NCBI GenBank assembly: GCA_007096525.1
Contig: SFAQ01000031.1
Location: forward strand, 15,666 to 79,665
DNA from: Microcystis wesenbergii Mw_QC_B_20070930_S4
Lineage (GTDB): Bacteria; Cyanobacteriota; Cyanobacteriia; Cyanobacteriales; Microcystaceae
Direction of reading: 5' to 3'
Length of the DNA stretch: 64,000 bases
Shown: one piece after another, positions 3,661 to 61,779 of the stretch
Layout: each line of letters starts with the position of its first letter
How positions within the stretch are numbered: position 1 is the stretch's first letter
Translations under genes and position numbers: made by a program
Notes under the pieces: model-generated
The model's database searches: none
Told to the model about the DNA's origin: nothing
Seen by the model: the letters and a program-made list of their open reading frames with translations, nothing else

Positions 3661-5967
3661 ATGGAAGTTCTAACCGAGACAATTAACCCAACTTCGATCG
3701 AACGGGAACCGATCCATCTCTATAACCGAATTCAACCGCACGGAGTGCTTTTAGTTCTCAGCGAACCAGAGCTAAAAGTCAGCCAAACTAGCAGTAATAG
3801 CCGCAGTTTATTGGGTATTTCTCCAGGAGAAATTATCGGTAAAACCCTAGAGGAAATCTTCGATCCCTTTCAGATCGATCCTCTAAAATCAGCCATAGAA
3901 AATAACGATTTTGATGCTATCAATCCCTCCAAAATTTGGGCGCGGGTTAAAGGGGATGATTTTGCTGTCTTTGATGCTATTTTCCACCGTAACGCCGAAC
4001 AAATGCTGATTTTAGAGTTAGAACCAGCTATTTCCTATGAAAACATTCCTTTCCTGAGATTCTATCACCTAGCTAAAACTTCGATCGATAAACTTGAAGC
4101 CACCCGTAGCCTAAAAGATTTCTGTAATATCATCGTTAAAGAAGTGCGAAAAATGACAGAATTCGATCGAGTTATGTTATACAAATTCGACGAAGAAGAT
4201 AACGGTGATGTGATAGCAGAAGACAAAATAGAGCAACTAGAACCCTATCTCGGTTTACGTTATCCCGCTGCCGATATCCCTCTCCCAGCACGAAATTTAT
4301 TAACTGCTAATTGGATTCGACAGATTCCCGATGCCACCTCTGAACCCGTCGATCTAGTGCCTAGTCTTCATCCCGAAACTCAACAACCTTTAAATTTAAC
4401 CCTGTCCAGTCTTAGAAGTGCTTCTCCCTGTCATTTAGAATACCTGCATAACATGGGAGTGGGAGCATCTCTAACTATTTCTCTGATTGAAAATAAACGT
4501 CTTTGGGGTATTATTGCCTGTCATCACCGCACCCCTAAATATGTACCCTACGAACTCCGTAAAGCTTGTGAGTTCTTAGGAAGAGTAATTTTCTCGGAAA
4601 TATCAGCACGGGAAGAAACCGAAGATTATGACTATCGAGTGAAATTAAACTTTGTGCAATCGCAATTAATCGATTATATGGCGGAAGCTAATAACTTTAT
4701 CGATGGATTAATTGCCCATAAACCTAATCTGCTCGATCTAACTAAAGCCACAGGAGCCGCTATTTGTTTAGGCGGCAATTATACCTTAATTGGAGTAACA
4801 CCGAGCGAAGAAGAACTAAATTATCTGATTACTTGGCTAGAAAAAAACGTCCATGAAGATGTTTACTATACTAATTCCTTACCGCAAATTTATGCCGATG
4901 GGGGTAAGTTTAAAGACATTGCCAGTGGCCTACTAGCAATTCCCATTTCTAAACGTAATTATCTCCTCTGGTTTCGTCCGGAAGTAATTCAAACCGTCAA
5001 CTGGGGTGGTGATCCGGGTAAAGCGATCAAAACGACTGCCATAGATGGTAATATTCGTCTCTGTCCGCGTAAATCCTTCTCCCTCTGGAAAGAAACCGTT
5101 CGTCTCAAATCTTTACCCTGGAAAGCAGTAGAAATTAACGCCGCACTAGAATTACGAAAAGCGATCGTCAATATCATCTTAAAACAAGCCGATGAATTGG
5201 CACGTTTAGCGCGGGATTTGGAACTATCAAACGCCGAATTAAAAAAATTCGCCTACGTCGCTTCCCACGATTTACAGGAACCCCTCAATCAAGTCGCCAA
5301 CTATGTGCAGTTGCTAGAAATGCGCTACACCGAAGAACTGGACGAAGATGCTAAAGAATTTATTACTTTTGCCGTCGAAGGTGTCAGCTTGATGCAAACA
5401 TTAATAGATGATGTGCTGGCTTACTCAAAAGTGGATATGCAGGCGGTAGAGTTTAATACCATCGATGCTAATCTGGCACTGGAAAAAGCTCTCGCTAACC
5501 TGAAAGGGAGAATTCAAGAAAGTCAAGCTATAATCACCGTTGATCCTTTGCCAATTGTCATGGCAGATAAAACCCAGTTAATGCAATTGTTCCAAAATCT
5601 TATCGGTAATGCCATTAAATTCCGGGGAAAAGCAACTCCCACTATTCATATTGCTGCCCAACGTCAAGAGCAGGAATGGCTGTTCTCTGTCACCGATAAT
5701 GGAATTGGTATCGATCCCCGATTTTCCGAACGCATTTTCGTGATTTTCCAACGACTGCACACCCGCGACGAGTACCCCGGCACAGGTATGGGTTTAGCGA
5801 TTTGTAAGAAAATTATCGAGTGTCATCGCGGACGAATTTGGGTAGAATCCCAATTAGGTAAAGGAGCGGTTTTCTATTTTACAATTCCCCTAGGAGGTGA
5901 CGAGCGTGAGCGCTGGCGAGGACGTGCCACACAAAATTATCTTATTAGTGGAGGACAGCAAAGCTGA
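3661..5967 (+). CDS. cph1: Cyanobacterial phytochrome, PAS-GAF-PHY histidine kinase (Cph1/CphA type)
   Basis: EPIH..IQPHG, YPAADIP, SPCHLEYLHNMGV (GAF Cys), PRKSF, SHDLQEPL and DNGIG kinase boxes. Confidence 0.93.
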   Translation: MEVLTETINPTSIEREPIHLYNRIQPHGVLLVLSEPELKVSQTSSNSRSLLGISPGEIIGKTLEEIFDPFQIDPLKSAIENNDFDAINPSKIWARVKGDDFAVFDAIFHRNAEQMLILELEPAISYENIPFLRFYHLAKTSIDKLEATRSLKDFCNIIVKEVRKMTEFDRVMLYKFDEEDNGDVIAEDKIEQLEPYLGLRYPAADIPLPARNLLTANWIRQIPDATSEPVDLVPSLHPETQQPLNLTLSSLRSASPCHLEYLHNMGVGASLTISLIENKRLWGIIACHHRTPKYVPYELRKACEFLGRVIFSEISAREETEDYDYRVKLNFVQSQLIDYMAEANNFIDGLIAHKPNLLDLTKATGAAICLGGNYTLIGVTPSEEELNYLITWLEKNVHEDVYYTNSLPQIYADGGKFKDIASGLLAIPISKRNYLLWFRPEVIQTVNWGGDPGKAIKTTAIDGNIRLCPRKSFSLWKETVRLKSLPWKAVEINAALELRKAIVNIILKQADELARLARDLELSNAELKKFAYVASHDLQEPLNQVANYVQLLEMRYTEELDEDAKEFITFAVEGVSLMQTLIDDVLAYSKVDMQAVEFNTIDANLALEKALANLKGRIQESQAIITVDPLPIVMADKTQLMQLFQNLIGNAIKFRGKATPTIHIAAQRQEQEWLFSVTDNGIGIDPRFSERIFVIFQRLHTRDEYPGTGMGLAICKKIIECHRGRIWVESQLGKGAVFYFTIPLGGDERERWRGRATQNYLISGGQQS

Positions 5968-6612: not shown

Positions 6613-7788
6613 ATGGGACTCTCGCAGGATATAAAAGTTCTTTTAATCGAGGATAATTTAGCCGAAGCTCGATTATTAAAGGAAATTCTTAAGGCTAATG
6701 AAAAAAAAGAATTTCATCTGGTTAATGTGTCAAGATTATCCGATGCAATTTCTCTTTTAAAACAAACAAATTTTGATGTAATTTTATTAGATCTAACTTT
6801 ACCAGATAGTCAGGGTTTAGAATCCTTAGCTCCCCTTTTAATTACGGCTCCGAAATTACCGATCGTGGTTTTAACTAATATTAATGATGATAATTTGGCT
6901 TTGGCAGCACTGCGTCAGGGAGCGCAGGATTATTTAATTAAAAGAGAAGTAAGTTTAGAAATTTTAACTCGATCGCTATGTTATGCGATCGAGCGAAAAC
7001 AGATGGAGGAAGCTTTACGAGAATCGAACGAAGCTTTAAAAATGAGCGTGATTGAACGCACTAATCAACTGGAAAAAGCTCAGGAATTAAATCAGTTAAA
7101 AACTGAATTTGTTTCCATGTTATCCCACGATTTTCGCAATCCTTTAAATAAAATTTTACTCTCGGCTGGATTATTAGAAGAAAGTCGCGATCGGTTGACA
7201 AAAGATCAGCAAGTTAGCTATTTTCGCATGATTCGATCGGCTATTAAAGACATGGATCAATTGCTCACAGAAGTGTTATTAATTGGCCGGGCCGATTCTG
7301 GGAGATTATACTGTCAATTTGATCCGGTGGATTTGCTCGATTATTGTCAGAAATTGGTAGAATCTTTTATTGTTAAGCCAGAACACCAATCAGCAATTAT
7401 TTTCCAAATTGAGGGCAGCTTAGAAAGAGGACTTTGGGATATAAATTTAATTAAACATATCTTGACAAATTTACTGGGAAATGCTATAAAATATTCACCC
7501 CAAGGAAACCCCGTAGAATTTAAGATTATTGTCGAATCCGAGCAGGTAGTCTTTAAAATTATCGATCGAGGCATTGGTATTCCCAGCAAAGATCAAGAAC
7601 ATTTATTTAAACCTTTTTATCGCGGTAGCAATGTCGATAATATTCAAGGAACGGGATTAGGATTAGCCATTGTCGGACGCTGTGTGGAAGCGCACAAAGG
7701 ACAAATTTACCTAGAAAGTGAGGAAGGAAAAGGCACAAAGATCACGGTGATTCTACCGATTATTACCGAGATTGAACACCTAAATTGA
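6613..7788 (+). CDS. Hybrid receiver-histidine kinase
   Basis: N-terminal REC domain (LLIED, LLDLTLPD); SHDFRNPL, NAIKYS, DRGIG, GLGL. Confidence 0.92.
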   Translation: MGLSQDIKVLLIEDNLAEARLLKEILKANEKKEFHLVNVSRLSDAISLLKQTNFDVILLDLTLPDSQGLESLAPLLITAPKLPIVVLTNINDDNLALAALRQGAQDYLIKREVSLEILTRSLCYAIERKQMEEALRESNEALKMSVIERTNQLEKAQELNQLKTEFVSMLSHDFRNPLNKILLSAGLLEESRDRLTKDQQVSYFRMIRSAIKDMDQLLTEVLLIGRADSGRLYCQFDPVDLLDYCQKLVESFIVKPEHQSAIIFQIEGSLERGLWDINLIKHILTNLLGNAIKYSPQGNPVEFKIIVESEQVVFKIIDRGIGIPSKDQEHLFKPFYRGSNVDNIQGTGLGLAIVGRCVEAHKGQIYLESEEGKGTKITVILPIITEIEHLN

Positions 7789-8182: not shown

Positions 8183-8447
8183 CTTAACGGATTTAGTATG
8201 AGGATCACCCTGAGCGTTCATCCGATCGAGTGATTTTGCGAAAAAGTGTTAAAAAAGATTGCTGTTTGTAAAGACAACTGTTACCGTAGGTTCAAGAGTG
8301 CGCTTTGAAGGAGGAAAAACCCCATGCAGCCTCACCTATCCATCTATACCTCGATTGCTTCGCTACTTATGTAGGGCATGGATGCACAAATCAAAGATTT
8401 CAGAAGCAAAACCAATAAATTCCCGTACTGTTGCTTAAAACAGGAGT

Positions 8448-9263
8448 TTGATCATGAAATTACAGGGAAAAACAGCCCTAGTCACGGGGGCATCCCGGGG
8501 CATTGGACGAGCGATCGCCTTAGAATTAGCCCGACAAGGTTTAAGCAGAATTGTGATTGTTGCCAGAGATCAAGAGCGATTAGAAAAACTAGCGAAAGAA
8601 ATTGAGTCCCTAGGGGTCATTGCCACACCCTTAGCCCTGGATTTAACCGAAAATGACCTTGTTAGTCCTGCAATTATCCGCGTTTGGCAAGAATGCCGTG
8701 GCATCGATATCCTCGTTAACTGTGCCGGTATTGCCCATCAAACCCCCTTTCTGCGATCGCAATTTTCGCAAGTGCAAGCAGAAATATCTTTAAATCTGAT
8801 GGCCATGTACACAGTTACTCGCTTAATTGCCCGCCGGATGGCAATTAGGGGACAGGGAACCATCGTCAATGTTTCCAGCATGATGGGTAAAATTGCCGCT
8901 CCTAGCTTCGCTACCTACTCGGCCACCAAATTTGCCATTTTGGGTTTTAGTCAAGCTCTCAGGTCGGAATTACGGGAACACAACATCAAAGTTGTCACCC
9001 TCTTACCCTCTTTAACCGATACGGATATGGTGCGAGAATTGCAGTTATTTCGATGGTTAAAACCGATGAGCGCCGAAGAAGTCGCCAAAACTCTCATTAC
9101 CGGGTTAAATAGGGAAAAAACGGAAATTGTCGTCGGTTGGCAAAGTCATCTAGCTCTTTGGTGCCAAAAATTTGCCCCGAAACTGCTCGAGAAAATTGTC
9201 GATTTAGCCTCTCCCTTGCGTCAGAGCAAAGGAAAGCGAGGATGGCGAGAAGTGTTTAACTAG
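8448..9263 (+). CDS. Short-chain dehydrogenase/reductase
   Basis: TGASRGIG, NCAG, YSATK. Confidence 0.93.
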   Translation: MIMKLQGKTALVTGASRGIGRAIALELARQGLSRIVIVARDQERLEKLAKEIESLGVIATPLALDLTENDLVSPAIIRVWQECRGIDILVNCAGIAHQTPFLRSQFSQVQAEISLNLMAMYTVTRLIARRMAIRGQGTIVNVSSMMGKIAAPSFATYSATKFAILGFSQALRSELREHNIKVVTLLPSLTDTDMVRELQLFRWLKPMSAEEVAKTLITGLNREKTEIVVGWQSHLALWCQKFAPKLLEKIVDLASPLRQSKGKRGWREVFN

Positions 9264-9271
9264 GGTTTAAT

Positions 9272-9488
9272 TAGGGTCTGCTGAAAAAGTTTTTCCTAGT
9301 GGCAGGGTGTGGGGTGTGGGGTGTGGGGTGTGGGGTTTTACTCATTTTCAGGTGGTCAATTACCTAATTTTCAGGAAAAAAGTACCTTAATTTTCCCCCC
9401 AATCACTCCAAAGGTCGGCACTTTTTGAGGTCAAAAAAGTCTAAAAACCTTATCCAACAAGGTTTTTAGATTTATTCAGCAAACCCTA
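9272..9488. mobile_element. MITE, same family as 8011-8182, opposite orientation
   Basis: TAGGGTCTGCTGAA ... TTCAGCAAACCCTA; shares interior segments with the first copy. Confidence 0.8.
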
Positions 9489-9543: not shown

Positions 9544-10410
9544 TTAAACGGCTGTCAGGGTTTTTTCTAGAAGTTGTCGGGGAGTTTGAACCGAACCACG
9601 ACAGTGGATTTCCGCAGAATTATTGGGACTTTCAATCAGTTTAACTTTATCTAATTGGGCCCCTAATTGCCGGATACGTTCCTCTAATAGTTGAGCGATG
9701 TGTAGGGCAATATTTTCTGCGGTGGGGACTACTTCGGCAAAGTAGGGAATATCGTTATTTAAAAAAGTATGATCGAAGGGTTCCACTACCAATTCATCGA
9801 TCGCTTTTTGTAAATCCCCCAGATCTACAATCATACCGGTGCGGGGATCGATTTCCCCCGCCACGGATACTTCTAGGTGATAATTATGACCATGACCGTT
9901 TACCCTGGCGCATTTGCCGTAGATTTCCGAGTTTTGTTCGAGGGTTAATTGCGGTAAAGCCAAACGATGAGCGGCACTAAAATGGGTTTTGATAGTTAAA
10001 GTTGCTTCCATATCTTTTCCTTGATATTCTGCCCACAATTCGGGGTGTTCAAATAGTTGAATTTTGACCAATGGTAAATAGGGTGCTAATCTTTGCCAGA
10101 TAACTCTAGCGATATTTTCTGTGGTGGGTAGGGTTTGCTGAAATTCCGGCCAGACTTGATTGAGATAGGAGTAGTCTAATTGACTGGTTATCTCTCGTTT
10201 AATTACCTGTTTCACGGTGGAGAGATTTTCCACCATGCCATAAAGATTGAGTTCTTTGTATAGGGAGACGTATAATTCGTAATTGTGACCATGACCGGGA
10301 AAACGGCTACCAAGACCAAAAAGTCTTTGATTTTCGGCTTCGTCCCATTCTGGCAGATAATAGCGATGGCTGGCTGAAAACCGCGCTCGACGATTGATGA
10401 TGCAATCCAT
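9544..10410 (-). CDS. Two-domain 6-pyruvoyl-tetrahydropterin synthase / QueD family
   Basis: Two repeats of FSA(S/A)HR...GHGHNY; start reassigned to ATG 10410 (MDCIINRR). Confidence 0.88.
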   Translation of the reverse strand: MDCIINRRARFSASHRYYLPEWDEAENQRLFGLGSRFPGHGHNYELYVSLYKELNLYGMVENLSTVKQVIKREITSQLDYSYLNQVWPEFQQTLPTTENIARVIWQRLAPYLPLVKIQLFEHPELWAEYQGKDMEATLTIKTHFSAAHRLALPQLTLEQNSEIYGKCARVNGHGHNYHLEVSVAGEIDPRTGMIVDLGDLQKAIDELVVEPFDHTFLNNDIPYFAEVVPTAENIALHIAQLLEERIRQLGAQLDKVKLIESPNNSAEIHCRGSVQTPRQLLEKTLTAV

Positions 10411-30124: not shown

Positions 30125-32131
30125 ATGTCTGCATTTATTGAAGTCGATCACATTGATAAGGTTTTCCCTCTCCCCGATGGCCGTCAATATATTGCCCTAA
30201 AAAATATCGATCTCAGCGTTACTCAAGGGGAATTTATCTCTTTAATCGGTCATTCCGGTTGTGGGAAATCCACCCTCTTAAATATGGTCGCCGGACTCGA
30301 TCGCCCCACGGTGGGAGGGGTGATTTTAGAGGGAAGAGAAATTAAAGGCCCCGGCCCCGATCGCATGGTGGTCTTCCAGAATTATTCTCTGCTGCCTTGG
30401 TTAACCGTCCGGGAAAATATCGCCCTAGGAGTTAACCGTGTGCTGCGTCATCTGCCGGCCGCTGAACGCAAAAGTGTCATCGAACATAGTATCGATATGG
30501 TACACCTGCGCCATGCCGCCAACAAACGACCGGGAGAATTATCGGGAGGCATGAAACAACGGGTAGCGATCGCCCGCGCCTTGGCCCTACGGCCAAAAGT
30601 CCTGCTACTCGATGAACCCTTTGGGGCGCTGGATGCGTTAACCAGAGGCAATTTACAGGAACGTTTGATGGAAATCGTCGAAGAAAGCCACGTTACCTGT
30701 ATCATGGTCACGCATGATGTGGATGAAGCCCTATTACTATCCGATCGAGTGGTGATGTTAACCACCGGTCCGGAAGCCCATATCGGTCAGATTCTCGATG
30801 TTCCCATTCCCCGGCCCCGGCATCGTTTAGAAGTAGTTAATCACCCTAGTTACTACGCCCTCCGTAACGAGATCGTTTATTTCCTCAACCAACAGAAGCG
30901 ATCGAAGAAAGTCGGTCAACCCACCGGACCGGTGACGGTGATCGGCCAAGCTACCCGACTGAAAACCAATCCCACCATCGGTTTTATCCCCCTCACCGAT
31001 TGCGCCCCGATTATTATCGCCCAAGAGAAAGGTTTCTTCGCCGAGGAAGGATTAGAGGATGTTATCCTGCAACGGGAACCCAACTGGAAAGCACTTGCCC
31101 AAGGAGTGGCTACCGGTCGTCTCGATGCAGCCCAGATGGTGGCGGGAATGCCCCTGAGCATGACCATTGGGGCCGGCAATAAGCCCTCTGTCCCCGTGAT
31201 TAGCGCTTTGGTACTCAGTCGCAACGGTAACGCCATCACCCTCAGCAATAAATACAGGGAATTGGGGGTAGAAAAACTGGAGGACTTGAAGGATGCCCTC
31301 CTGCAAAGTCCCGATAAAATCGCCACTTTCGGCATGGTTCACCCCGCCTCCATGCACAATCTACTGTTACGCTACTGGTTAGCTAGTGGCGGCATCGATC
31401 CCGATAGTGATGTCAATTTAGCCGTAATTCCGCCGCCTCAGATGGTTTCCCTACTAAAAGCGGGTAATATCGACGGTTATTGTGTGGGGGAACCCTGGAA
31501 CTCCTACGCCGTTCACGAAAAATTAGGCTACGTTATCGCCACCGATCTTGATATTTGGCCCGGACACCAGGAAAAAGTCCTCGGAGTCAAGGAAACTTGG
31601 GCGGCGAAACATCCCGAAACCCATATCGCCATGGTGAAAGCTTTAATCAGAGCCTGTGAATACTGCGATGATCGGCGTAATCGAGAAGAAATCGTCAATA
31701 TTCTCAGTCAGCCCCAGTATGTGGGCGTGGATAGCGCAATTATTCGCCCCGGTTTCCTCGATGGTTACGATCGCGGTTTAGGAACTGCCCCCGAACCCCT
31801 ATTCCGATTTAATCAGTTTTACGTCGATCAAGCTAACTGTCCGGGCCGGAGTGAGGCCCTATGGACCCTAACTCAGCTTGCCCGTTGGGGTTACGCCCCT
31901 TTCCCCCGCAACTGGGTGGAAGTGATTGAACGCGTCCGTCGTCCCGATCTGTTTGGGGAAGCTTGCCGGTCCCTGGGCCTTCCCGATTTGGAACCCGATC
32001 GCCACAGTTTTGCCCTCTTTGATCATCTTATTTTCAATCCTGACGATCCGATCGGCTATCTAGAACGTTTCTCGATCCGTCGCGATTATCGCGTCTCGGA
32101 AGTTCTCCTCGATGATCCTGTCGCTAATTAA
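30125..32131 (+). CDS. nrtC: Nitrate ABC ATPase with C-terminal NrtA-like regulatory domain
   Basis: GHSGCGKS, LSGGMKQR, second domain with GYCVGEPW. Confidence 0.93.
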   Translation: MSAFIEVDHIDKVFPLPDGRQYIALKNIDLSVTQGEFISLIGHSGCGKSTLLNMVAGLDRPTVGGVILEGREIKGPGPDRMVVFQNYSLLPWLTVRENIALGVNRVLRHLPAAERKSVIEHSIDMVHLRHAANKRPGELSGGMKQRVAIARALALRPKVLLLDEPFGALDALTRGNLQERLMEIVEESHVTCIMVTHDVDEALLLSDRVVMLTTGPEAHIGQILDVPIPRPRHRLEVVNHPSYYALRNEIVYFLNQQKRSKKVGQPTGPVTVIGQATRLKTNPTIGFIPLTDCAPIIIAQEKGFFAEEGLEDVILQREPNWKALAQGVATGRLDAAQMVAGMPLSMTIGAGNKPSVPVISALVLSRNGNAITLSNKYRELGVEKLEDLKDALLQSPDKIATFGMVHPASMHNLLLRYWLASGGIDPDSDVNLAVIPPPQMVSLLKAGNIDGYCVGEPWNSYAVHEKLGYVIATDLDIWPGHQEKVLGVKETWAAKHPETHIAMVKALIRACEYCDDRRNREEIVNILSQPQYVGVDSAIIRPGFLDGYDRGLGTAPEPLFRFNQFYVDQANCPGRSEALWTLTQLARWGYAPFPRNWVEVIERVRRPDLFGEACRSLGLPDLEPDRHSFALFDHLIFNPDDPIGYLERFSIRRDYRVSEVLLDDPVAN

Positions 32132-32177
32132 TGGTTGTGGTGGGTAAAGCCCACCTTAAAATAAATCTAGGACGAAT

Positions 32178-33176
32178 ATGCAAACTTTTACCGATAAGAC
32201 CGTGAATTCCAGCACCACTACCCAGCCTTTTTTATTAGTTAGTAATGTTGCCAAAGAATACCCCTCCCCCGAAGGGGTTTACACCGTTTTAGACGGTGTG
32301 GAGCTGCAAGTCAATGAGGGGGAATTTGTCTGCATTATCGGTCACTCCGGCTGCGGTAAATCGACCCTTTTAAATATGGTGGCGGGGTTTTCTTCTCCTA
32401 GTCGTGGGCAAGTGCTGCTACAGGATAAAGAGGTTAAGGAACCAGGACCAGACCGGATGATGGTATTCCAAAATTATTCGCTTCTGCCCTGGAAAACTGC
32501 CTTTGAGAACGTTTATATCGGGGTTAATTCGGTTTATCCCGAAAAATCTCAGGCTGAGAAGGTGAAGATTGTGGAAGAAAATCTATCCTTAGTGGGATTG
32601 ACAGAGGCAGCCCAGAAAAAACCCCCCCAATTATCGGGAGGCATGAAACAACGGGTAGCGATCGCCCGCGCCCTGGCCATTCGTCCCCAAGTCCTCATCC
32701 TCGATGAACCCTTTGGGGCCTTAGATGCGATCACTAAAGAGGAATTACAGGAAGAATTGCTGAAAATCTGGCAAGAACACCAGTTAACCGTGTTGATGAT
32801 TACCCACGATATCGATGAGGCTTTGTTCTTGTGCGATCGCTTGGTGATGATGACCAACGGCCCGAGCGCTAAAATCGGTGAGGTGTTAAAGATGCCTTTT
32901 GCCCGTCCCCGGGTTCGTTCCCAAATTACCGAGGACCCCCGTTACTACGAACTCCGCAATGAAGCTCTCGATTTCCTCTACAATCGTTTTGCCCATTCGG
33001 AGGATCCCAACGAGGATGCCCCCGAACAACCCCGCACAGAAAATCTCGTGGGTAAAATTGTTACTACTATTGGTGGCATAGCTTTACTCGCTTTTGTCGG
33101 TTTTAGTCTAATACAAATGTTCACTAGCAAGACTCCCAATACTGCTAATCCTGCCACCATAGAGGCCCCCAGATAA
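32178..33176 (+). CDS. nrtD: Nitrate ABC ATPase with hydrophobic C-terminal tail
   Basis: GHSGCGKS, LSGGMKQR, ILDEPFGALD. Confidence 0.92.
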   Translation: MQTFTDKTVNSSTTTQPFLLVSNVAKEYPSPEGVYTVLDGVELQVNEGEFVCIIGHSGCGKSTLLNMVAGFSSPSRGQVLLQDKEVKEPGPDRMMVFQNYSLLPWKTAFENVYIGVNSVYPEKSQAEKVKIVEENLSLVGLTEAAQKKPPQLSGGMKQRVAIARALAIRPQVLILDEPFGALDAITKEELQEELLKIWQEHQLTVLMITHDIDEALFLCDRLVMMTNGPSAKIGEVLKMPFARPRVRSQITEDPRYYELRNEALDFLYNRFAHSEDPNEDAPEQPRTENLVGKIVTTIGGIALLAFVGFSLIQMFTSKTPNTANPATIEAPR

Positions 33177-57349: not shown

Positions 57350-58576
57350 TTGGTAAAGACCGTGAGTAAGTTTATTCGCTACAGTACAATTATCACCCTG
57401 CTGGGCATTTTAGCAGCCTGTAGTGGCAATCCTGTCCTAGAAAATCGTCTGGCTGCCGATCCTAATCTACAAACAAATCCCATACCAGAAAACTCTCCTA
57501 ATAACAAGCAATTACCCGCAAACTTTCCCGCAGAAATTCCTCGATATAGTCAATCAGAATTATTATCCGTGCAGACAAATTCTGATAATAATGGTGGGCA
57601 AACCCGTTGGCAATCCAACGATCCCAGCAATGCGATCGAGGCTTTTTATCAACAGGAATTAGTTAATAATAATTGGGAAATTGTCACTCCCTTTTCTGGG
57701 GAAGGAGTCAATAGTACCCTAACGGCCCGTCGAGATAATTTAGAGTTAACTATCACCATAACTGCCACTTCTCCCAATACCGAATATAGCCTCGATTATC
57801 GTCCAACGGGAACTCCGATTGCGTCCCCTAGTCCCTCCCCTAGTCCCTCCCCTAGTCCCTCCCTTATTCCCTCCCCGTTACCCAATCTTAATCCCACCAG
57901 TTTTAACGATCTCGAATCCTTACCTAATCCCTTAAAGAGCCATATTCAAGACTTAGCTAGATTAGGAGTATTAACAGGTAATAACAATCAGTTTAACCCT
58001 AATAATACAATAACACGCCGAGAATTTGCTCGCTGGTTATTACAGGCTAATAATGCCATTTATGCTAATGTAGCGGGTAAACAAATACGTTTAGCTACTC
58101 CCAATAGTTCCCCAGCTTTTAGTGATGTTAAAAATAACGATCCCGATTATATTTATATTCAAGGATTAGCGGAAGCTGGGTTAATTCCCTCTCCTTTAAC
58201 CGGAGATAGTAGCGCCCTTTTATTCCGTCCCAATGCTCCTTTAACCCGGGAAGATTTAATCGCTTGGAAAGTGCCATTAGATATCAGAAAAGCTTTACCG
58301 AGCGCCAATCTTGATACAATTAAAAATACCTGGGGTTTTCAGGATACTAATAAAATTAACCCGCAGCTGGTGCGCGCCCTTTATGCCGATTTTCAAAATG
58401 CCGAACAAGCCAATATTCGGCGAGTTTTTGGTTTTACTACCCTATTTCAGCCAAAAAGACCAGTAACTCGCGCTGAAGCTGCCGCTACTTTATGGTATTT
58501 TGGTTTTCAAGGTGATGGTGTTTCCGCTGCCGATGCCGTACAAGGTCAAGAGCCGCAACAGAGTGGGGTTAATTAA
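57350..58576 (+). CDS. SLH-domain lipoprotein with a Ser-Pro linker
   Basis: Lipobox LAAC, (SP)n from a 12-bp repeat, FNPNNTITRREFA and FQPKRPVTRAEAA. Confidence 0.85.
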   Translation: MVKTVSKFIRYSTIITLLGILAACSGNPVLENRLAADPNLQTNPIPENSPNNKQLPANFPAEIPRYSQSELLSVQTNSDNNGGQTRWQSNDPSNAIEAFYQQELVNNNWEIVTPFSGEGVNSTLTARRDNLELTITITATSPNTEYSLDYRPTGTPIASPSPSPSPSPSPSLIPSPLPNLNPTSFNDLESLPNPLKSHIQDLARLGVLTGNNNQFNPNNTITRREFARWLLQANNAIYANVAGKQIRLATPNSSPAFSDVKNNDPDYIYIQGLAEAGLIPSPLTGDSSALLFRPNAPLTREDLIAWKVPLDIRKALPSANLDTIKNTWGFQDTNKINPQLVRALYADFQNAEQANIRRVFGFTTLFQPKRPVTRAEAAATLWYFGFQGDGVSAADAVQGQEPQQSGVN

Positions 58577-58578
58577 TA

Positions 58579-58765
58579 GGGATCATCCCACTTTTGCCAT
58601 AAGCAATTGTACTTAGATGCGAAATACTTATATGGCAAGCCTTTTCGGGAGTTCATAGATTTTCAACGGTTCTCGCGCATTGTGTGATTGGAACCAGAAT
58701 CGTTACTACAAAAGCCTTCTCACCTTTCTGAGCATTTATACTCATTACATAATTGGGATGCTCCC
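58579..58765. mobile_element. 187-bp MITE
   Basis: TIRs GGGATCATCCCACTT / AATTGGGATGCTCCC (13/15). Confidence 0.78.
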
Positions 58766-58786
58766 ATTCAACGTTGAGGAAATACC

Positions 58787-58984
58787 GTGAACATCAGCCT
58801 AGATCTACCTTCAGAGCCAGAGAATGAGTTATCAAGAAAATCCTCCTAAAACAGGGCTGGAGCCGGTTGCTTACTGGGAAAGTGTTGGGGTTATTGGCTC
58901 CCCACCTGATATTGCTGTTGGGCATAATGCAACCCTTGGCACTTTCAACGTGAAGCACTATCGAGTCATCCCAGGCTTGAGCAT
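58787..58984 (+). pseudogene. Collapsed, internally deleted copy of the vapBC locus at 59976-60708
   Basis: Three colinear blocks match 59954-60022, 60097-60173 and 60616-60686. Confidence 0.88.
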
Positions 58985-59018
58985 TGATTATGCTTGTGGA
59001 GTCCATCTGTTATCATCT

Positions 59019-59159
59019 TGGGTAGTTCTGTAAACGGAACTGCCCGGATGCACATCTGCCGGTATTACACAAGAGGAAGCTCTCAACAATATACAGGAAG
59101 CGATCGAGCTTTATTTACAACCCGACGCTATCGACTTCTACCCGGACAGTAATCCGTGA
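59019..59159 (+). pseudogene. HicB-family antitoxin relic
   Basis: WVVL*TELPGCTSAGITQEEALNNIQEAIELYLQPD; no start codon; in-frame stop. Confidence 0.72.
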
Positions 59160-59228
59160 GGTTATGGTGGGATGACTCGACTCGGGAGGTGGTAAAATAG
59201 TCCGATGCCTGTAAAACATTAACAAAAC

Positions 59229-59456
59229 ATGACTACTCTGTTGCAAAAAGCATTCACAGAAATCCAGAAACTGCCAGAGTCTCTTCAGGATGAACTTGCT
59301 CAACAATTGCTGGAAGACATTGAAAGTGAATTAAAATGGCAGCAAAGCCTTTCTAACGAAGATCTGGAATTGGGAGCTTTAATAACAATGGCACAGGAAG
59401 CCCTGATAGAAGAACAAGAGGGAAGAACAGAAGATAAAGGCTTTGGGGAAGAATGA
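59229..59456 (+). CDS. Type II TA antitoxin
   Basis: 75 aa acidic protein; ATGA overlap with the toxin. Confidence 0.78.
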   Translation: MTTLLQKAFTEIQKLPESLQDELAQQLLEDIESELKWQQSLSNEDLELGALITMAQEALIEEQEGRTEDKGFGEE

Positions 59457-59728
59457 AGTCAGCCAGAACCAAGAGGTTTCGTCAACTTTTTCTCAGTTTG
59501 CCGCAAAGGGTACAAGAAACAGCCAAGAAAAATTACGAGATTTGGCAAGAAAATCCATTTCACCCCAGCCTAGAGTTCAAAGAGGTGAAACCAAGAGAAA
59601 AAATCTGGTCAGTCAGAGTCGGCATTGGATGGCGAGCATTAGGGATTAAAAAGTCAGACGAAGAAAAGATAGTTTGGTTCTGGGTTGGGTCGCACTCCGA
59701 GTATGACAAGATTCTAGGTAAGAATTAG
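59453..59728 (+). CDS. RelE/ParE-like toxin
   Basis: NPFHPSLEFK, WSVRVGIGWRALG, WFWVGSHSEYD. Confidence 0.85.
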   Translation: MKSARTKRFRQLFLSLPQRVQETAKKNYEIWQENPFHPSLEFKEVKPREKIWSVRVGIGWRALGIKKSDEEKIVWFWVGSHSEYDKILGKN

Positions 59729-59733
59729 GAGCG

Positions 59734-59819
59734 ATCTAACCAATCACTGCACCCGACCGAGAGTTAGACTAATAATATTATTCAAGGTTGATGATAGCGG
59801 GTCAGTGCGATCGTTATCT
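59734..59819 (+). other. Integron attC recombination site (86 bp)
   Basis: R'' ATCTAAC, 5 nt, L'' ACTG(C)ACC with an extra base; L' GGTCAGT, 6 nt, R' GTTATCT; second unpaired base after CCCG. Confidence 0.78.
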
Positions 59820-59881
59820 GTAAATATTCTCATTTTCAAGGTTTAATTGGGCGATAACTCTATCAATTAAATCACAGCCCT
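59812..59881 (-). repeat. Diverged duplicate of the dusB 3' end
   Basis: 65/70 identical to 60725-60794; encodes GCDLIDRVIAQLNLENENIYR*. Confidence 0.92.
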
Positions 59882-59975
59882 AGGCTGGTTTGACCCAAGG
59901 AAACCCAACCCCTTCGTTTAACTGAATATATTCCGATATAATCAAAGACAGGTCATTGAACGTTGAGGAAATACC

Positions 59976-60320
59976 GTGAACATCAGCCTAGATTTACCTT
60001 CAGAGCTAGAGAATGAGTTATCTGCAGAAGCTTCTCATCTCAAATTGCCTTTATCAGAGTATATTCTGCGTGTTCTCTCCTTTCGCCCTTTTCTTCAAAA
60101 TCCTCCTAAAACAGGGCTGGAGCTAGTTGCTTATTGGGAAAGCGTTGGGGTTATTGGCTCCCGACCTGATATTATCGATAGTCAGGAGCAGGCAACAACT
60201 ACTAATACTATTAATAAGATAATCCATGCAACAACATCTACGACCCGACCTGATATTATCGATAGTCAGGAGCAGGCAAGCAAATTGCGCCATGAAGCTG
60301 AAACCCGTGAGCGGGCTTAG
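59976..60320 (+). CDS. VapB-like antitoxin carrying an in-frame 84-bp insertion
   Basis: GTG start after GAGG, TATAAT upstream, directly before a PIN toxin; RPDIIDSQEQA occurs twice. Confidence 0.78.
   Translation: MNISLDLPSELENELSAEASHLKLPLSEYILRVLSFRPFLQNPPKTGLELVAYWESVGVIGSRPDIIDSQEQATTTNTINKIIHATTSTTRPDIIDSQEQASKLRHEAETRERA
60160..60279. repeat. Exact 36-bp direct repeat flanking a 48-bp unique spacer
   Basis: CCCGACCTGATATTATCGATAGTCAGGAGCAGGCAA at 60160-60195 and 60244-60279. Confidence 0.95.
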
Positions 60321-60327
60321 GTAGTAA

Positions 60328-60708
60328 ATGTACCTTGTCGATACTGATGTCATGATTGATATTCAGCGGGGTTATGAGCCTGCAATCGCTTGGTTTGCCT
60401 CTCTCCCAGAACTGCCGAGTATCTCTGGCTTTGTTGTGATGGAGTTGATTCAGGATGCTCAGAACCAGCAACAGGTTCGTCGAGTCCTACAGCTTGTAAA
60501 ACCGTTACCCATTGTTTGGCCTACTGAAGCTGACTGTACCCGTGCTTTATCTGACTTTACGACTTACCATCTGTCTCATAAAGTTGGACTGATTGATGCC
60601 TTAATTGCCGCTTCTGCCGTTGGGCATAATGCAACCCTTTGCACTTTCAACGTGAAGCACTATCGAGTCATCCCGGGCCTGCGCATGGAGCAACCCTATA
60701 GTCGCTGA
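60328..60708 (+). CDS. VapC/PIN-domain toxin
   Basis: YLVDTDVMID, MEL, GLIDALIAA, TFNVKHY. Confidence 0.9.
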   Translation: MYLVDTDVMIDIQRGYEPAIAWFASLPELPSISGFVVMELIQDAQNQQQVRRVLQLVKPLPIVWPTEADCTRALSDFTTYHLSHKVGLIDALIAASAVGHNATLCTFNVKHYRVIPGLRMEQPYSR

Positions 60709-60712
60709 AGTA

Positions 60713-60732
60713 GCCTAACCCCAACGTTATCT
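60713..60732 (+). other. Collapsed attC relic
   Basis: GCCTAAC (RYYYAAC) 4 nt after the vapC stop, joined via CCCAAC directly to GTTATCT at the dusB stop. Confidence 0.5.
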
Positions 60733-61779
60733 GTCAATATTCTCGTTTTCAAGGTTTAATTGGGCAATAGCTCCATCAATTAAATCACAGCCCTCCCCCA
60801 GGGATTCGATCCGCGAAAACCGATCGCGCCAAACCGCCGCACCGGTAAAATCCTGACAATACCAAGCCAGATGTTTCCGCGCCTGCCAGATACCGCGTTG
60901 TCCCTTGTATAGCCATAGCCCCTGTAAATGCTCTTTAGCTAGGCTTAACAGGTCAATAGAGGTGGGTTTCGGCAACTTTTTGCCTGTTTTGAGGTAATAA
61001 TCGATTTCCCCCACCAAATAGGGATAACCGAGGGTTCCCCGCGAACACATCACCCCATCGGCCTGGGTAAATTCCAAACAATTAATCGCCGCTTCCACAG
61101 AAACAATATCACCATTAGCGATGACAGGAATCGATAAAACCTCCTTCACCCGTTTAATCCATTGCCAATCGGCCGGCCCGTGATAACCCTGTTCCCTAGT
61201 GCGTGCGTGCAGGGTCAACATTTGCGCTCCCGCATCTTCCAAACGACGGGCAAAATCGATAATATTAATCTCTTGATCGTTCCATCCCAAGCGAGTTTTC
61301 ACCGTTACCGGCACCGATACCGCTCCCACCACTTCCCTAACAATTTGCTCGGCAATTTCTGGCTGTCGTAAAAGGGAAGAACCGCCGCCTTTTTTAGTAA
61401 TTTTATTAACAGGACAACCCATATTAATATCGATGGTCATCGCTCCTTCTTTAACCGCTTTTTCCGCTGCCACAGCCATAAAATCGGGACGGCAATCAAA
61501 TAATTGCATACTAATTGGTTGTTCCTTGTCCCCGATAACCATCAATTGCGGTAACTCTTGCAGCTGGGAGATTTCTGTCGCATTAACCATCTCCGTATAG
61601 AGCATGGAATCAGGAGCAAAACGTCTCACCAAGCGCCGAAAAACTAAATCGGTGACACCGGATAAAGGTGATTGCAAGACGCGGCTATGCACTGCTAAGT
61701 TACCGATTTTGAGAGGGGATGAGTAGATAGCCATAGGACCGGTTAAAAAATCAACAGCCAACACCAGCAAACCGAACAA
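60727..61779 (-). CDS. dusB: tRNA-dihydrouridine synthase
   Basis: SPLSGVTD, DINMGCP, GGGSSLL, TVKTRLG, LHART, IANGDI. Confidence 0.9.
   Translation of the reverse strand: MFGLLVLAVDFLTGPMAIYSSPLKIGNLAVHSRVLQSPLSGVTDLVFRRLVRRFAPDSMLYTEMVNATEISQLQELPQLMVIGDKEQPISMQLFDCRPDFMAVAAEKAVKEGAMTIDINMGCPVNKITKKGGGSSLLRQPEIAEQIVREVVGAVSVPVTVKTRLGWNDQEINIIDFARRLEDAGAQMLTLHARTREQGYHGPADWQWIKRVKEVLSIPVIANGDIVSVEAAINCLEFTQADGVMCSRGTLGYPYLVGEIDYYLKTGKKLPKPTSIDLLSLAKEHLQGLWLYKGQRGIWQARKHLAWYCQDFTGAAVWRDRFSRIESLGEGCDLIDGAIAQLNLENENIDR

Follow-up and report, generated by a model that had tools for sequence, protein, structure and literature searches.

We propose, with a probability of about 0.8, that positions 59734-59819 are the attC site of a parDE integron cassette, and that this cassette belongs to a small, decayed, integrase-less array ending on the stop codon of dusB in the Microcystis wesenbergii window (the whole 64,000-nt stretch of DNA analysed here). 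In the best reading of the data, the array would consist of fossil toxin-antitoxin (TA) cassettes of the SALIN/CALIN type, which came from cyanobacterial integrons and were joined to dusB at G|TT.

The parDE cassette and its attC site

The cassette is ~650 nt long and carries two overlapping genes. The first encodes a putative antitoxin of 75 aa (59229..59456, + strand), which accompanies the toxin as a conserved partner at every homologous locus and gave no match in the family search; its ORF overlaps the toxin start by 4 nt (ATGA). The second encodes a ParE-like toxin of 91 aa (59453..59728, + strand), which matches PF24732 (ParE_like) with 37.2 bits against a cut-off of 24.4 and has 365 relatives, mostly cyanobacterial where they are named. 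A toxin of a curated family preceded by a small overlapping partner is the arrangement that marks type II TA systems of the ParE/RelE superfamily, and the pair is regarded here as a putative type II toxin-antitoxin. The attC site occupies the 3' end of the cassette in gene orientation. Promoter and terminator scans of the window returned no more sites than those of shuffled sequences, and no terminator-like site was called on the + strand at the attC. Metatranscriptome contigs, in which DNA contamination is possible, cover parDE, the attC and vapBC.

The toxin stop TAG (59726-59728) is followed by a 5-nt gap (GAGCG, 59729-59733) and by R'' (ATCTAAC, 59734-59740), which is a full match to RYYYAAC. 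The 5' spacer of 5 nt (CAATC, 59741-59745) leads into the L'' side (ACTGCACCCG, 59746-59755), which pairs with the L' side (CGGGTCAGT, 59798-59806), and an unpaired A (A59756) and a loop of 41 nt (59757-59797) lie between the two. The 3' spacer of 6 nt (GCGATC, 59807-59812) and R' (GTTATCT, 59813-59819) complete the site, which is on the + strand with its crossover between G59813 and T59814. The boxes and spacers lie where the earlier note had placed them, with R'' 5 nt past the stop, spacers of 5 and 6 nt and GTT in R', and the second unpaired base that it had named is A59756. Its unpaired C needs a qualification. C59750 is indeed the one unpaired base on the 5' side of the L'' arm, whereas in the family-consensus register the unpaired base is G59749 and a C.C mismatch is added.

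The L helix has 3+6 positions, 8 of them paired, with one bulge in addition to the unpaired A59756, and the stem beyond A59756 is weak, consisting of one G-C pair and one G.T pair. The first extrahelical top-strand base in the family register is normally G, not C, and the C bulge of the window site results from a G-to-C change in L'. When R' is compared with GTTRRRY, the GTT and the first R fit, and two of the distal positions deviate because they come from dusB; R' pairs with R'' at 5/7 positions, and other Microcystis variants have GTTAGAC or GTTAGGC as their R'. The spacer GCGATC is also a derived state, in place of which the other Microcystis variants and the integron contig L096 described below have TCAACC, TCAAAC or TCAGCC. 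The box register is identical to that of the published consensus, and three L-helix pairs are changed on both sides with pairing kept (A-T for G-C at 13/74, and C-G for G-C at 19/69 and 21/67). From its sequence, the bottom strand of the folded site is predicted to be a recombination substrate of IntI.

Tests with attC models

Thermodynamic (MFE) folding of either strand did not distinguish the attC from shuffled sequences (z = -0.29 and -0.99). Since the folding energy fails to single out the site, attC models were used as the test. The first was the filter HMM of the Cyanobacteria attC model published by Ghaly et al. 2021 (PMC8352920), transcribed from their Supplementary Data 1; it spans 87 positions and derives from 51 attCs, a training set whose overlap with Microcystis is possible. 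When it was run with nhmmer without filters, one significant match was obtained in the window, at 59735-59817 on the + strand (20.6 bits, E=3e-05), spanning model positions 2-85, and the runner-up had E=4.9. In the register of this HMM, the site shows the 5-nt and 6-nt spacers of the family and two unpaired positions on the 5' side.

The second was a covariance model of our own, R1, built from 12 attCs, of which 11 came from the L096 integron and one from L052, with the L096 parDE attC excluded. Its alignment shows covariation in 9/13 L-helix pairs, and 86% of its cells are paired, compared with 27-46% in slid controls; as a positive control, the attC downstream of aadA1 on plasmid R46 scored 38.4 bits. 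With filters off, R1 gave a single significant match in the window, 59734-59819 at full length, with 48.2 bits and an E-value of 7.6e-11, which partly measures homology because R1 holds attCs of the same sequence family; the runner-up had E=1.6. The window attC (48 bits) scores lower than those of other strains (61-63 bits), and only one intact attC was found per Microcystis locus. Rfam at the gathering threshold found tRNA-His as the only hit in the window and nothing at the attC site. The check by an attC covariance model that the earlier note had proposed came out positive with R1, as did the profile HMM, and the note's assignment of a canonical attC is borne out by the sequence, the structure, the two models and the homologous attC of the parDE cassette in the L096 integron.

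The same cassette in a cyanobacterial integron

A relative of the ParE-like toxin with 87% identity is carried by L096, a 54-kb metagenome contig. On its minus strand, L096 has an IntI homologue that shares 47-53% identity with IntI1 across residues 1-328, and a stretch of this protein aligns to what we take to be the IntI-specific insert. The gene is frameshifted in the assembly, and an intact relative (P0121) is 94% identical. The plus strand holds at least 13 attCs in an array that also has empty cassettes of 185 nt, and in this array the parDE cassette begins at position 7716 (G|TTAGAT) and ends at 8361 (the G of GTTATAC). The DNA of this cassette is 84% identical to window positions 59189-59770. 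Its attC, which reads ATCTAAC AAATC ACT[G]CACCCG[A]...CGGGTG AGT TCAACC GTTATAC, scores 79 bits and is the undamaged form of the window site. Many other attCs of the L096 array belong to the same sequence family as the window attC. The host of L096 is a cyanobacterium other than Microcystis, judging from a flanking protein whose best named relatives are at most 52% identical.

An intact IntI is also present on a second set of contigs, L180/L181, where attCs of the window-type family occur together with attCs of the vapBC type. The 120 best relatives of the L096 IntI include named ones from Pseudanabaena, Synechococcus, Cyanosarcina, Halomicronema and other genera, and none of the 120 carries the name Microcystis or lies on a 5-Mb contig. 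Distant ParE homologues, among them those of Synechococcus PCC 6312 and Phormidium, lack an attC, with at most a degenerate 3' trace in PCC 6312.

A second cassette with a collapsed attC

A vapBC cassette (59917..60726, + strand), whose relatives lie in attC arrays, is located beside the real dusB gene. It consists of vapB (59976-60320, + strand), with an 84-nt internal duplication, and vapC (60328-60708, + strand), encoding a PIN toxin (PF01850). The attC of this cassette has collapsed to a 20-nt scar (60713..60732, + strand). In the scar, R'' (GCCTAAC, 60713-60719) lies 4 nt past the vapC stop and is a perfect match to the consensus, CCCAAC is the remnant of the 6-nt 3' spacer, and R' is GTTATCT (60726-60732), the TTA of which is the real dusB stop. 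In L009 and L101 the scar reads GCCTAAC|TTCACC GTTATCTG, and in the window it reads GCCTAAC CCCAAC GTTATCT. A full attC is absent after the window vapC stop, where only R'', 6 nt and R' are present.

A metagenome scan with VapC returned 80 relatives, of which more than 25 have a full attC, detected with R1, 7-8 nt past the stop of vapC. These sites read GCCTAAC ACTGC GTT[G]GTGCGG[A]CGG...GCCGCAC AAC TTCACC GTTA, and many of the attC-bearing relatives are located in multi-attC arrays, one of which also has an IntI fragment. The full sites of these relatives and the scar in Microcystis together show that vapBC is also an integron cassette. On comparison with the full sites, ~73 nt of hairpin have been deleted from the vapBC attC, which is a derivative of an attC and not a functional one. 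A window-wide search for R''-N5-7-R' scars was not specific, with 8 found versus ~3 expected, most of which look unrelated.

The cassette is preceded by a 35-nt segment (59882..59916), which travels with the vapBC module and is also present in L003 and L081. It ends in ...CCCTTCG|TTTAAC, a possible cassette start.

Junctions at the dusB stop codon

The conserved gene dusB (60727..61779, - strand) encodes tRNA dihydrouridine synthase B (TIGR00737, 392 bits), and the array ends on its stop codon. The window dusB is 96-99% identical to dusB of Microcystis genomes. A 70-nt copy of its 3' end (59812..59881, - strand; 93% identical to 60725-60794) adjoins the parDE attC, and the TTA at 59814-59816 on the + strand is the reverse complement of the TAA stop in this copy. 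The crossover GTT lies on that stop codon, as the earlier note had read it. The dusB-terminal sequence around GTT is CG|TTATCTG; …CCGTTATCTGTAAAT…, and the right-hand attG motif of IntI1 (CRGM, +6 to +9) is absent at the junction, with TGTA in its place.

In Microcystis, the array fills the gap between two convergent genes, an SLH-domain gene and dusB. Across 11 species-level genomes the sequence downstream of dusB is hypervariable, and in 10 further strains from different samples the cassette always lies between these two genes in an identical arrangement. The homology of the cassette always ends at R', after which the neighbour differs between loci. In the window type, R' runs into the dusB copy (G|TTATCTG); the junction reads GTTAG|AAAG in L006 and GTTAG|GCTT in L008, and in L002/L085 it reads GTTAGAC|ATAC with a globin gene after it. 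The junction of L001/L010 (GCGATCG|CCGATC) has a G without TT and is therefore not a canonical IntI crossover, so that at least one rearrangement there is non-canonical. What is left of the 3' part of this attC (...CGGGTCAGTTCA[A/G]CC|GTTATCTG) directly adjoins the stop of the real dusB in L004, L007 and L081/82/84/89. Since this is seen in several Microcystis lineages, the attC-dusB junction is old in the genus. The conservation boundary at the dusB end could partly reflect selection on dusB, not site-specific recombination. The delivery of TA cassettes to the dusB terminus by an IntI-type recombinase, which the earlier note had proposed, holds up as an account of the past, to which the attC remnants at dusB and the vapBC scar point.

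Probable duplication and remodelling of the array

The two crossover points (59814-60726) delimit 913 nt, which comprise the dusB fragment, the 35-nt segment, vapBC and the collapsed attC. To the left of parDE lies the remnant of another vapBC copy, vapBC#2 (58765..58987, + strand), in three pieces that match 59954-60689 at 92-96%. This copy has two internal deletions and lacks the last ~16 nt of vapC, and its spacing fits the replacement of its last 37 nt by the parDE cassette. A 913-nt segmental duplication is a more likely origin of the dusB copy than an integrase reaction. In the simplest account, the vapBC cassette and 70 nt of dusB were duplicated together, and the parDE cassette came to lie at one of the two resulting attC/dusB junctions; the outcome would look alike if a 913-nt circle had reintegrated through its attC. 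In L081-type strains, 48 nt of the parDE attC were duplicated together with the dusB end, and therefore more than one event has taken place.

The native 5' end of the parDE cassette (G|TTGAATTGCAAG) is kept in L010, and the native start in both L096 and L010 is G|TTRRRY. In the window, this end is replaced at 59188/59189 by a HicB-like antitoxin remnant (58999..59188, + strand; PF15919 with E=4.4e-4, under the curated cut-off), which is fused to the truncated 5' end of the cassette, and the left boundary is not G|TT. The remnant itself has a 75-nt deletion relative to L001/L006.

Integrase and integron class

The earlier note had seen no integrase in the window, and the searches agree with it. 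No tyrosine recombinase (PF00589) was found among the window ORFs of at least 150 aa, which were Pfam-scanned or annotated in near-identical strains; those with matches are ordinary chromosomal genes, and three are without a match. PF00589 was likewise absent from the Pfam tables of 10 strain loci, and IntI1 of plasmid R46 gave no tblastn match in the window or in 90 loci, including 21 Microcystis loci. The Microcystis sequence searched for IntI comprises the window and these 21 loci, about 0.4 Mb. Since no IntI was found in it, the enzyme that made the junctions is hypothetical for the genus, and the attC is most likely a fossil now.

With regard to its class, the locus lacks the intI gene with an adjacent attI that defines a complete integron. 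It has one CDS-associated attC, with no other model-detected att site and no integrase nearby, and this corresponds to a SALIN. A CALIN requires at least two attCs within 4 kb and no integrase, and here one model-detectable site is accompanied by one collapsed 20-nt scar. The vapBC scar is invisible to attC models, so a standard tool would probably call a single attC. Cyanobacterial integrons and a cyanobacterial attC model have been published (Ghaly et al. 2021, PMC8352920), and clusters of attCs that lack an integron integrase are known as CALINs (Cury et al. 2016, PMC4889954; Neron et al. 2022, PMC9024848). Single attCs (SALINs) and the insertion by IntI at genomic GWT sites (attG) have been described as well, experimental insertion at such sites gives the same kind of junction, and the decay of integrons has been put forward as one way in which CALINs arise (Loot et al., bioRxiv 10.1101/2022.09.11.507474). 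The route that the earlier note called poorly described in cyanobacteria is therefore not an undescribed one. A full-text literature search found no description of integron elements in Microcystis.

Origin of the array

The IntI and attC steps of the mechanism that we propose are drawn from established integron biology. The parDE cassette would have left the chromosomal integron of a different cyanobacterium as an excised circle. Its attC would fold on the bottom strand so that the R box, the unpaired spacer and the L box form a hairpin with extrahelical bases, and an IntI tyrosine recombinase would join this hairpin to a double-stranded G|TT target, in this case the GTT overlapping the dusB stop (CG|TTATCTG). 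As the target overlaps the stop codon, the latter would be rebuilt on insertion. The vapBC cassette beside the real dusB would have arrived by the same route, with later deletion of its hairpin leaving R'', the 3' spacer and R'. The subsequent remodelling would need no integrase: it would include the 913-nt segmental duplication, deletions, insertions of MITE-like small inverted repeats, replacement of the cassette 5' end by the hicB fragment, and conversion of the L'-R' spacer to the HIP1-like GCGATC. The TA pairs were presumably kept through an addictive or defensive effect. Against this explanation stand the lack of an IntI in the Microcystis sequence searched, the C.C mismatch or shifted bulge of the L helix, the deviations in R', the L001/L010 junction and the left boundary that is not G|TT.

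It is possible, if doubtful, that the array is instead the remnant of a complete chromosomal integron, which lay beside dusB in the Microcystis ancestor with intI and attI on the SLH-gene side and later lost its integrase and decayed. Such an origin involves no one-by-one delivery in trans and differs from our explanation only in the mode of arrival. Because the cassettes are oriented toward dusB, this gene marks the distal end, at which one expects a fixed junction of an attC with the chromosome. Two or more cassettes are stacked there along with further cassette-like units, which hold globin in L085/L002 and unknown ORFs in L006/L008. The gap between dusB and the SLH gene is larger than 6 kb in 11/11 species representatives, and decay of this kind is among the published explanations of CALINs. 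However, neither an intI pseudogene nor an attI was seen in the 21 Microcystis loci, only one intact attC was found per locus, and the attC families match the distant integrons L096 and L180/L181, not a Microcystis-specific family.

We consider it rather unlikely that the attC is a passive passenger, in which case the parDE-attC unit and its junction with dusB would have been made by ordinary recombination (transformation, illegitimate or HIP1-associated recombination, or duplication) and not by an integrase at GTT. Two unrelated cassettes are joined to dusB at the same G|TT, each with its own R' in register, the attC consensus C-GTT is preserved, and IntI makes such junctions at GWT sites in experiments. 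These observations oppose a passive origin, which is favoured by the integrase-free events at the locus (the 913-nt duplication, the deletions and the MITE-like insertions), by the lack of TT at the L001/L010 junction, by a left boundary that is not canonical, and by selection on dusB, which would set the conservation boundary just past the stop.

Two further readings are improbable. In one, a speculation, the GTT of the dusB stop would be a recurrent natural landing pad of the attG/attI type in a genus lacking its own integrase. IntI supplied in trans (e.g. from plasmid-borne cyanobacterial integrons) would have stacked TA and other cassettes at this GTT, the 913-nt unit (dusB 3' fragment, vapBC and attC) would be a circularly permuted cassette reinserted via its attC, and cassettes with collapsed attCs may be an unrecognised source of many Microcystis TA loci. 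The other, to which we give slightly less credit, is that the system is still active, with cassettes being moved by an IntI encoded elsewhere in the Microcystis genome or on a plasmid and landing at the dusB GTT as their dedicated site. Several different neighbours right after R' among the strains would fit ongoing activity, as would the window vapC-dusB junction, which is of the same type as the cassette-free L009 allele and looks as it would after precise excision. The metatranscriptome contigs also contain co-occurring variants, one of which joins 59188 to 59735, and plasmid NZ_CP083584.1 of Kovacikia minuta has an integron integrase. This is, however, the only plasmid with a relative at least 60% identical to the L096 IntI among the best 5000 records, and the Microcystis sequence searched holds no IntI. 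Of the two attCs, one is a collapsed scar and the other a degraded site (48 vs 61-63 bits in other strains), and the identical arrangement in ten strains from different samples also argues against present movement.

Finally, a site unrelated to integrons, either a chance hairpin flanked by HIP1-like GCGATC or a terminator of the TA operon, is hardly credible and is refuted as far as sequence evidence goes by the attC models and the L096 homologue: although the folding energy is not unusual, HIP1 (GCGATCGC, the highly iterated palindrome of cyanobacteria) is 27-fold enriched in the window (27 vs ~1 expected) and GCGATC stands on both sides of the hairpin, the two models match only the attC site in the window, a homologous attC lies in a real integron array, the window site departs from the family consensus by compensatory changes, the scan called no + strand terminator there, and the HIP1 explanation of the hairpin was rejected on the ground that the GCGATC spacer is a derived variant of TCAACC.

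Read as fossil cassettes from cyanobacterial integrons, the locus provides a natural, datable example of integron cassettes outside integrons in a bloom-forming cyanobacterium. Its main added value lies in the collapsed second attC, the likely donor-type arrays and the precise host junction on a stop codon. An attC can shrink to a scar of 20 nt and so escape standard tools, and counts of cassette-derived genes may therefore be too low. Microcystis is known for its heavy load of toxin-antitoxin genes, and integron traffic as a contributor to the Microcystis accessory genome becomes a testable question.

Comparison with known systems

Like SALINs and CALINs, the locus has one or a few attC cassettes without intI nearby and a host junction at G|TT as in attG insertion. 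It differs from them in its Microcystis host, in a junction placed on the stop codon of a housekeeping gene, in the collapse of the second attC, and in that the CRGM motif reported for IntI1 at attG (+6 to +9) is missing. Genomic islands can integrate at the 3' end of a gene and duplicate that end, and the 70-nt dusB copy, which lies 913 nt away from the gene's own 3' end, resembles this outcome. However, the unit between the repeats is only 913 nt long and encodes no integrase, and the dusB repeat is best explained either by a segmental duplication that took in a cassette and the end of the gene, or by a circularly permuted unit that reintegrated via its attC.

Sedentary chromosomal integrons of the Vibrio superintegron type carry TA cassettes. 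As in these integrons, ParE/RelE-type and PIN-type pairs occur in Microcystis as single cassettes with the attC a few nt past the toxin stop, whereas the Microcystis cassettes are outside an integron platform, in an integrase-less region, and are partly decayed. Cyanobacterial chromosomal integrons have IntI, many near-identical attCs and 185-nt empty cassettes, and the Microcystis site stands isolated; in it, a G in L' has become C, the spacer is HIP1-like, and dusB sequence completes R'. The architecture is nevertheless the same in both (R''-5 nt-3 bp-bulge-6 bp-bulge ... 6 nt-R'), and they share the attC sequence family ACTGCACCCGAC...CGGGTGAGTTCAACCGTTA and a parDE cassette with 84% DNA identity.

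Sequence features of the attC site and the dusB end

In the attC of the parDE cassette (antitoxin and ParE-like toxin; window 59734-59819, plus strand), the spacer between L' and R' (59807-59812) has become GCGATC in place of the earlier TCAACC, which other strains and L096, a metagenome contig from a non-Microcystis cyanobacterium, carry. A second GCGATC lies at 59731-59736, immediately ahead of R''. These hexamers resemble HIP1, the highly iterated cyanobacterial palindrome; they seem to have originated inside a recombination site, and they seem to give the site an alternative pairing. The cyanobacterial attC consensus contains a conserved internal CAAGGTTATCTG (consensus positions 50-61; compared with the attC loops of L106, L108, L113 and L125). 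At the dusB end (60725-60770), GTTATCTG is present at the stop codon and TTCAAGGTT lies 25 nt deeper into the gene, and this likeness to the attC consensus may be a coincidence or may be one reason for the suitability of this end as a target.

Internal repeats in the window

The vapB gene contains a 36-nt perfect repeat with copies at 60160-60195 and 60244-60279, spaced by 84 nt. The 84-nt duplication keeps the reading frame, so that RPDIIDSQEQA is present twice in a VapB of 114 amino acids, and it is absent from other Microcystis loci. Tandem repeats of 12 nt (57815-57874) encode a Pro-Ser-rich linker of the SLH-domain protein.

Variants and mobile elements of the region in Microcystis

Metatranscriptome contigs (runs X12, X13, X15 and X17) contained a variant in which about 229 nt of other sequence take the place of the parDE body (window 59188/59735), while the hicB flank on one side and the attC on the other are unchanged; loose ends showed that the attC variant of the L002 type was also present in these samples. 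In M. ichthyoblabe (L001, 7462-11500), dusB is separated from the parDE cassette by a gene for a PIN toxin together with an operon of type I restriction-modification, and the attC junction reads GCGATCG|CC.

A MITE-like element whose ends, GTAGGGTTTGCTGAA...TTCAGCAAACCCTAC, are inverted was inserted into the cassette region of L081 (10547-10720) and L085 (11190-11410) and beside the dusB stop of L006, and the final two dusB codons were apparently replaced by this element in L005 and L006. Several variable-region modules are flanked by a recurrent hairpin repeat of about 110 nt, GGGTGCGTTCCC...GGGAACGCACC...AAAAACGTCTAGGCACAGCG (L085, 10900-11010; also L002, L003, L008 and L010), which was not detected by the attC models.

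Comparison with integrons of other cyanobacteria

The L096 integron, which is of the donor type, includes several empty cassettes of 184-185 nt bordered by near-identical attCs (5072-5435, 6825-7009, 9131-9315 and 9959-10321). DUF6884, HerA-like and TGT-like genes lie in a long cassette region of this integron and possibly form a DNA-modification or defence system. In another cyanobacterium, UBA999 (L052), the published HMM gave a strong attC match of 31 bits at 9308-9389 on the minus strand, immediately after a two-gene pair (211 and 82 amino acids) and 2.3 kb downstream of dusB. The Kovacikia minuta CCNUW1 plasmid NZ_CP083584.1 (58.5 kb) encodes an integron integrase (32027-32980) with 65% identity to the L096 IntI, and a plasmid of this sort might carry an integrase that works in trans.
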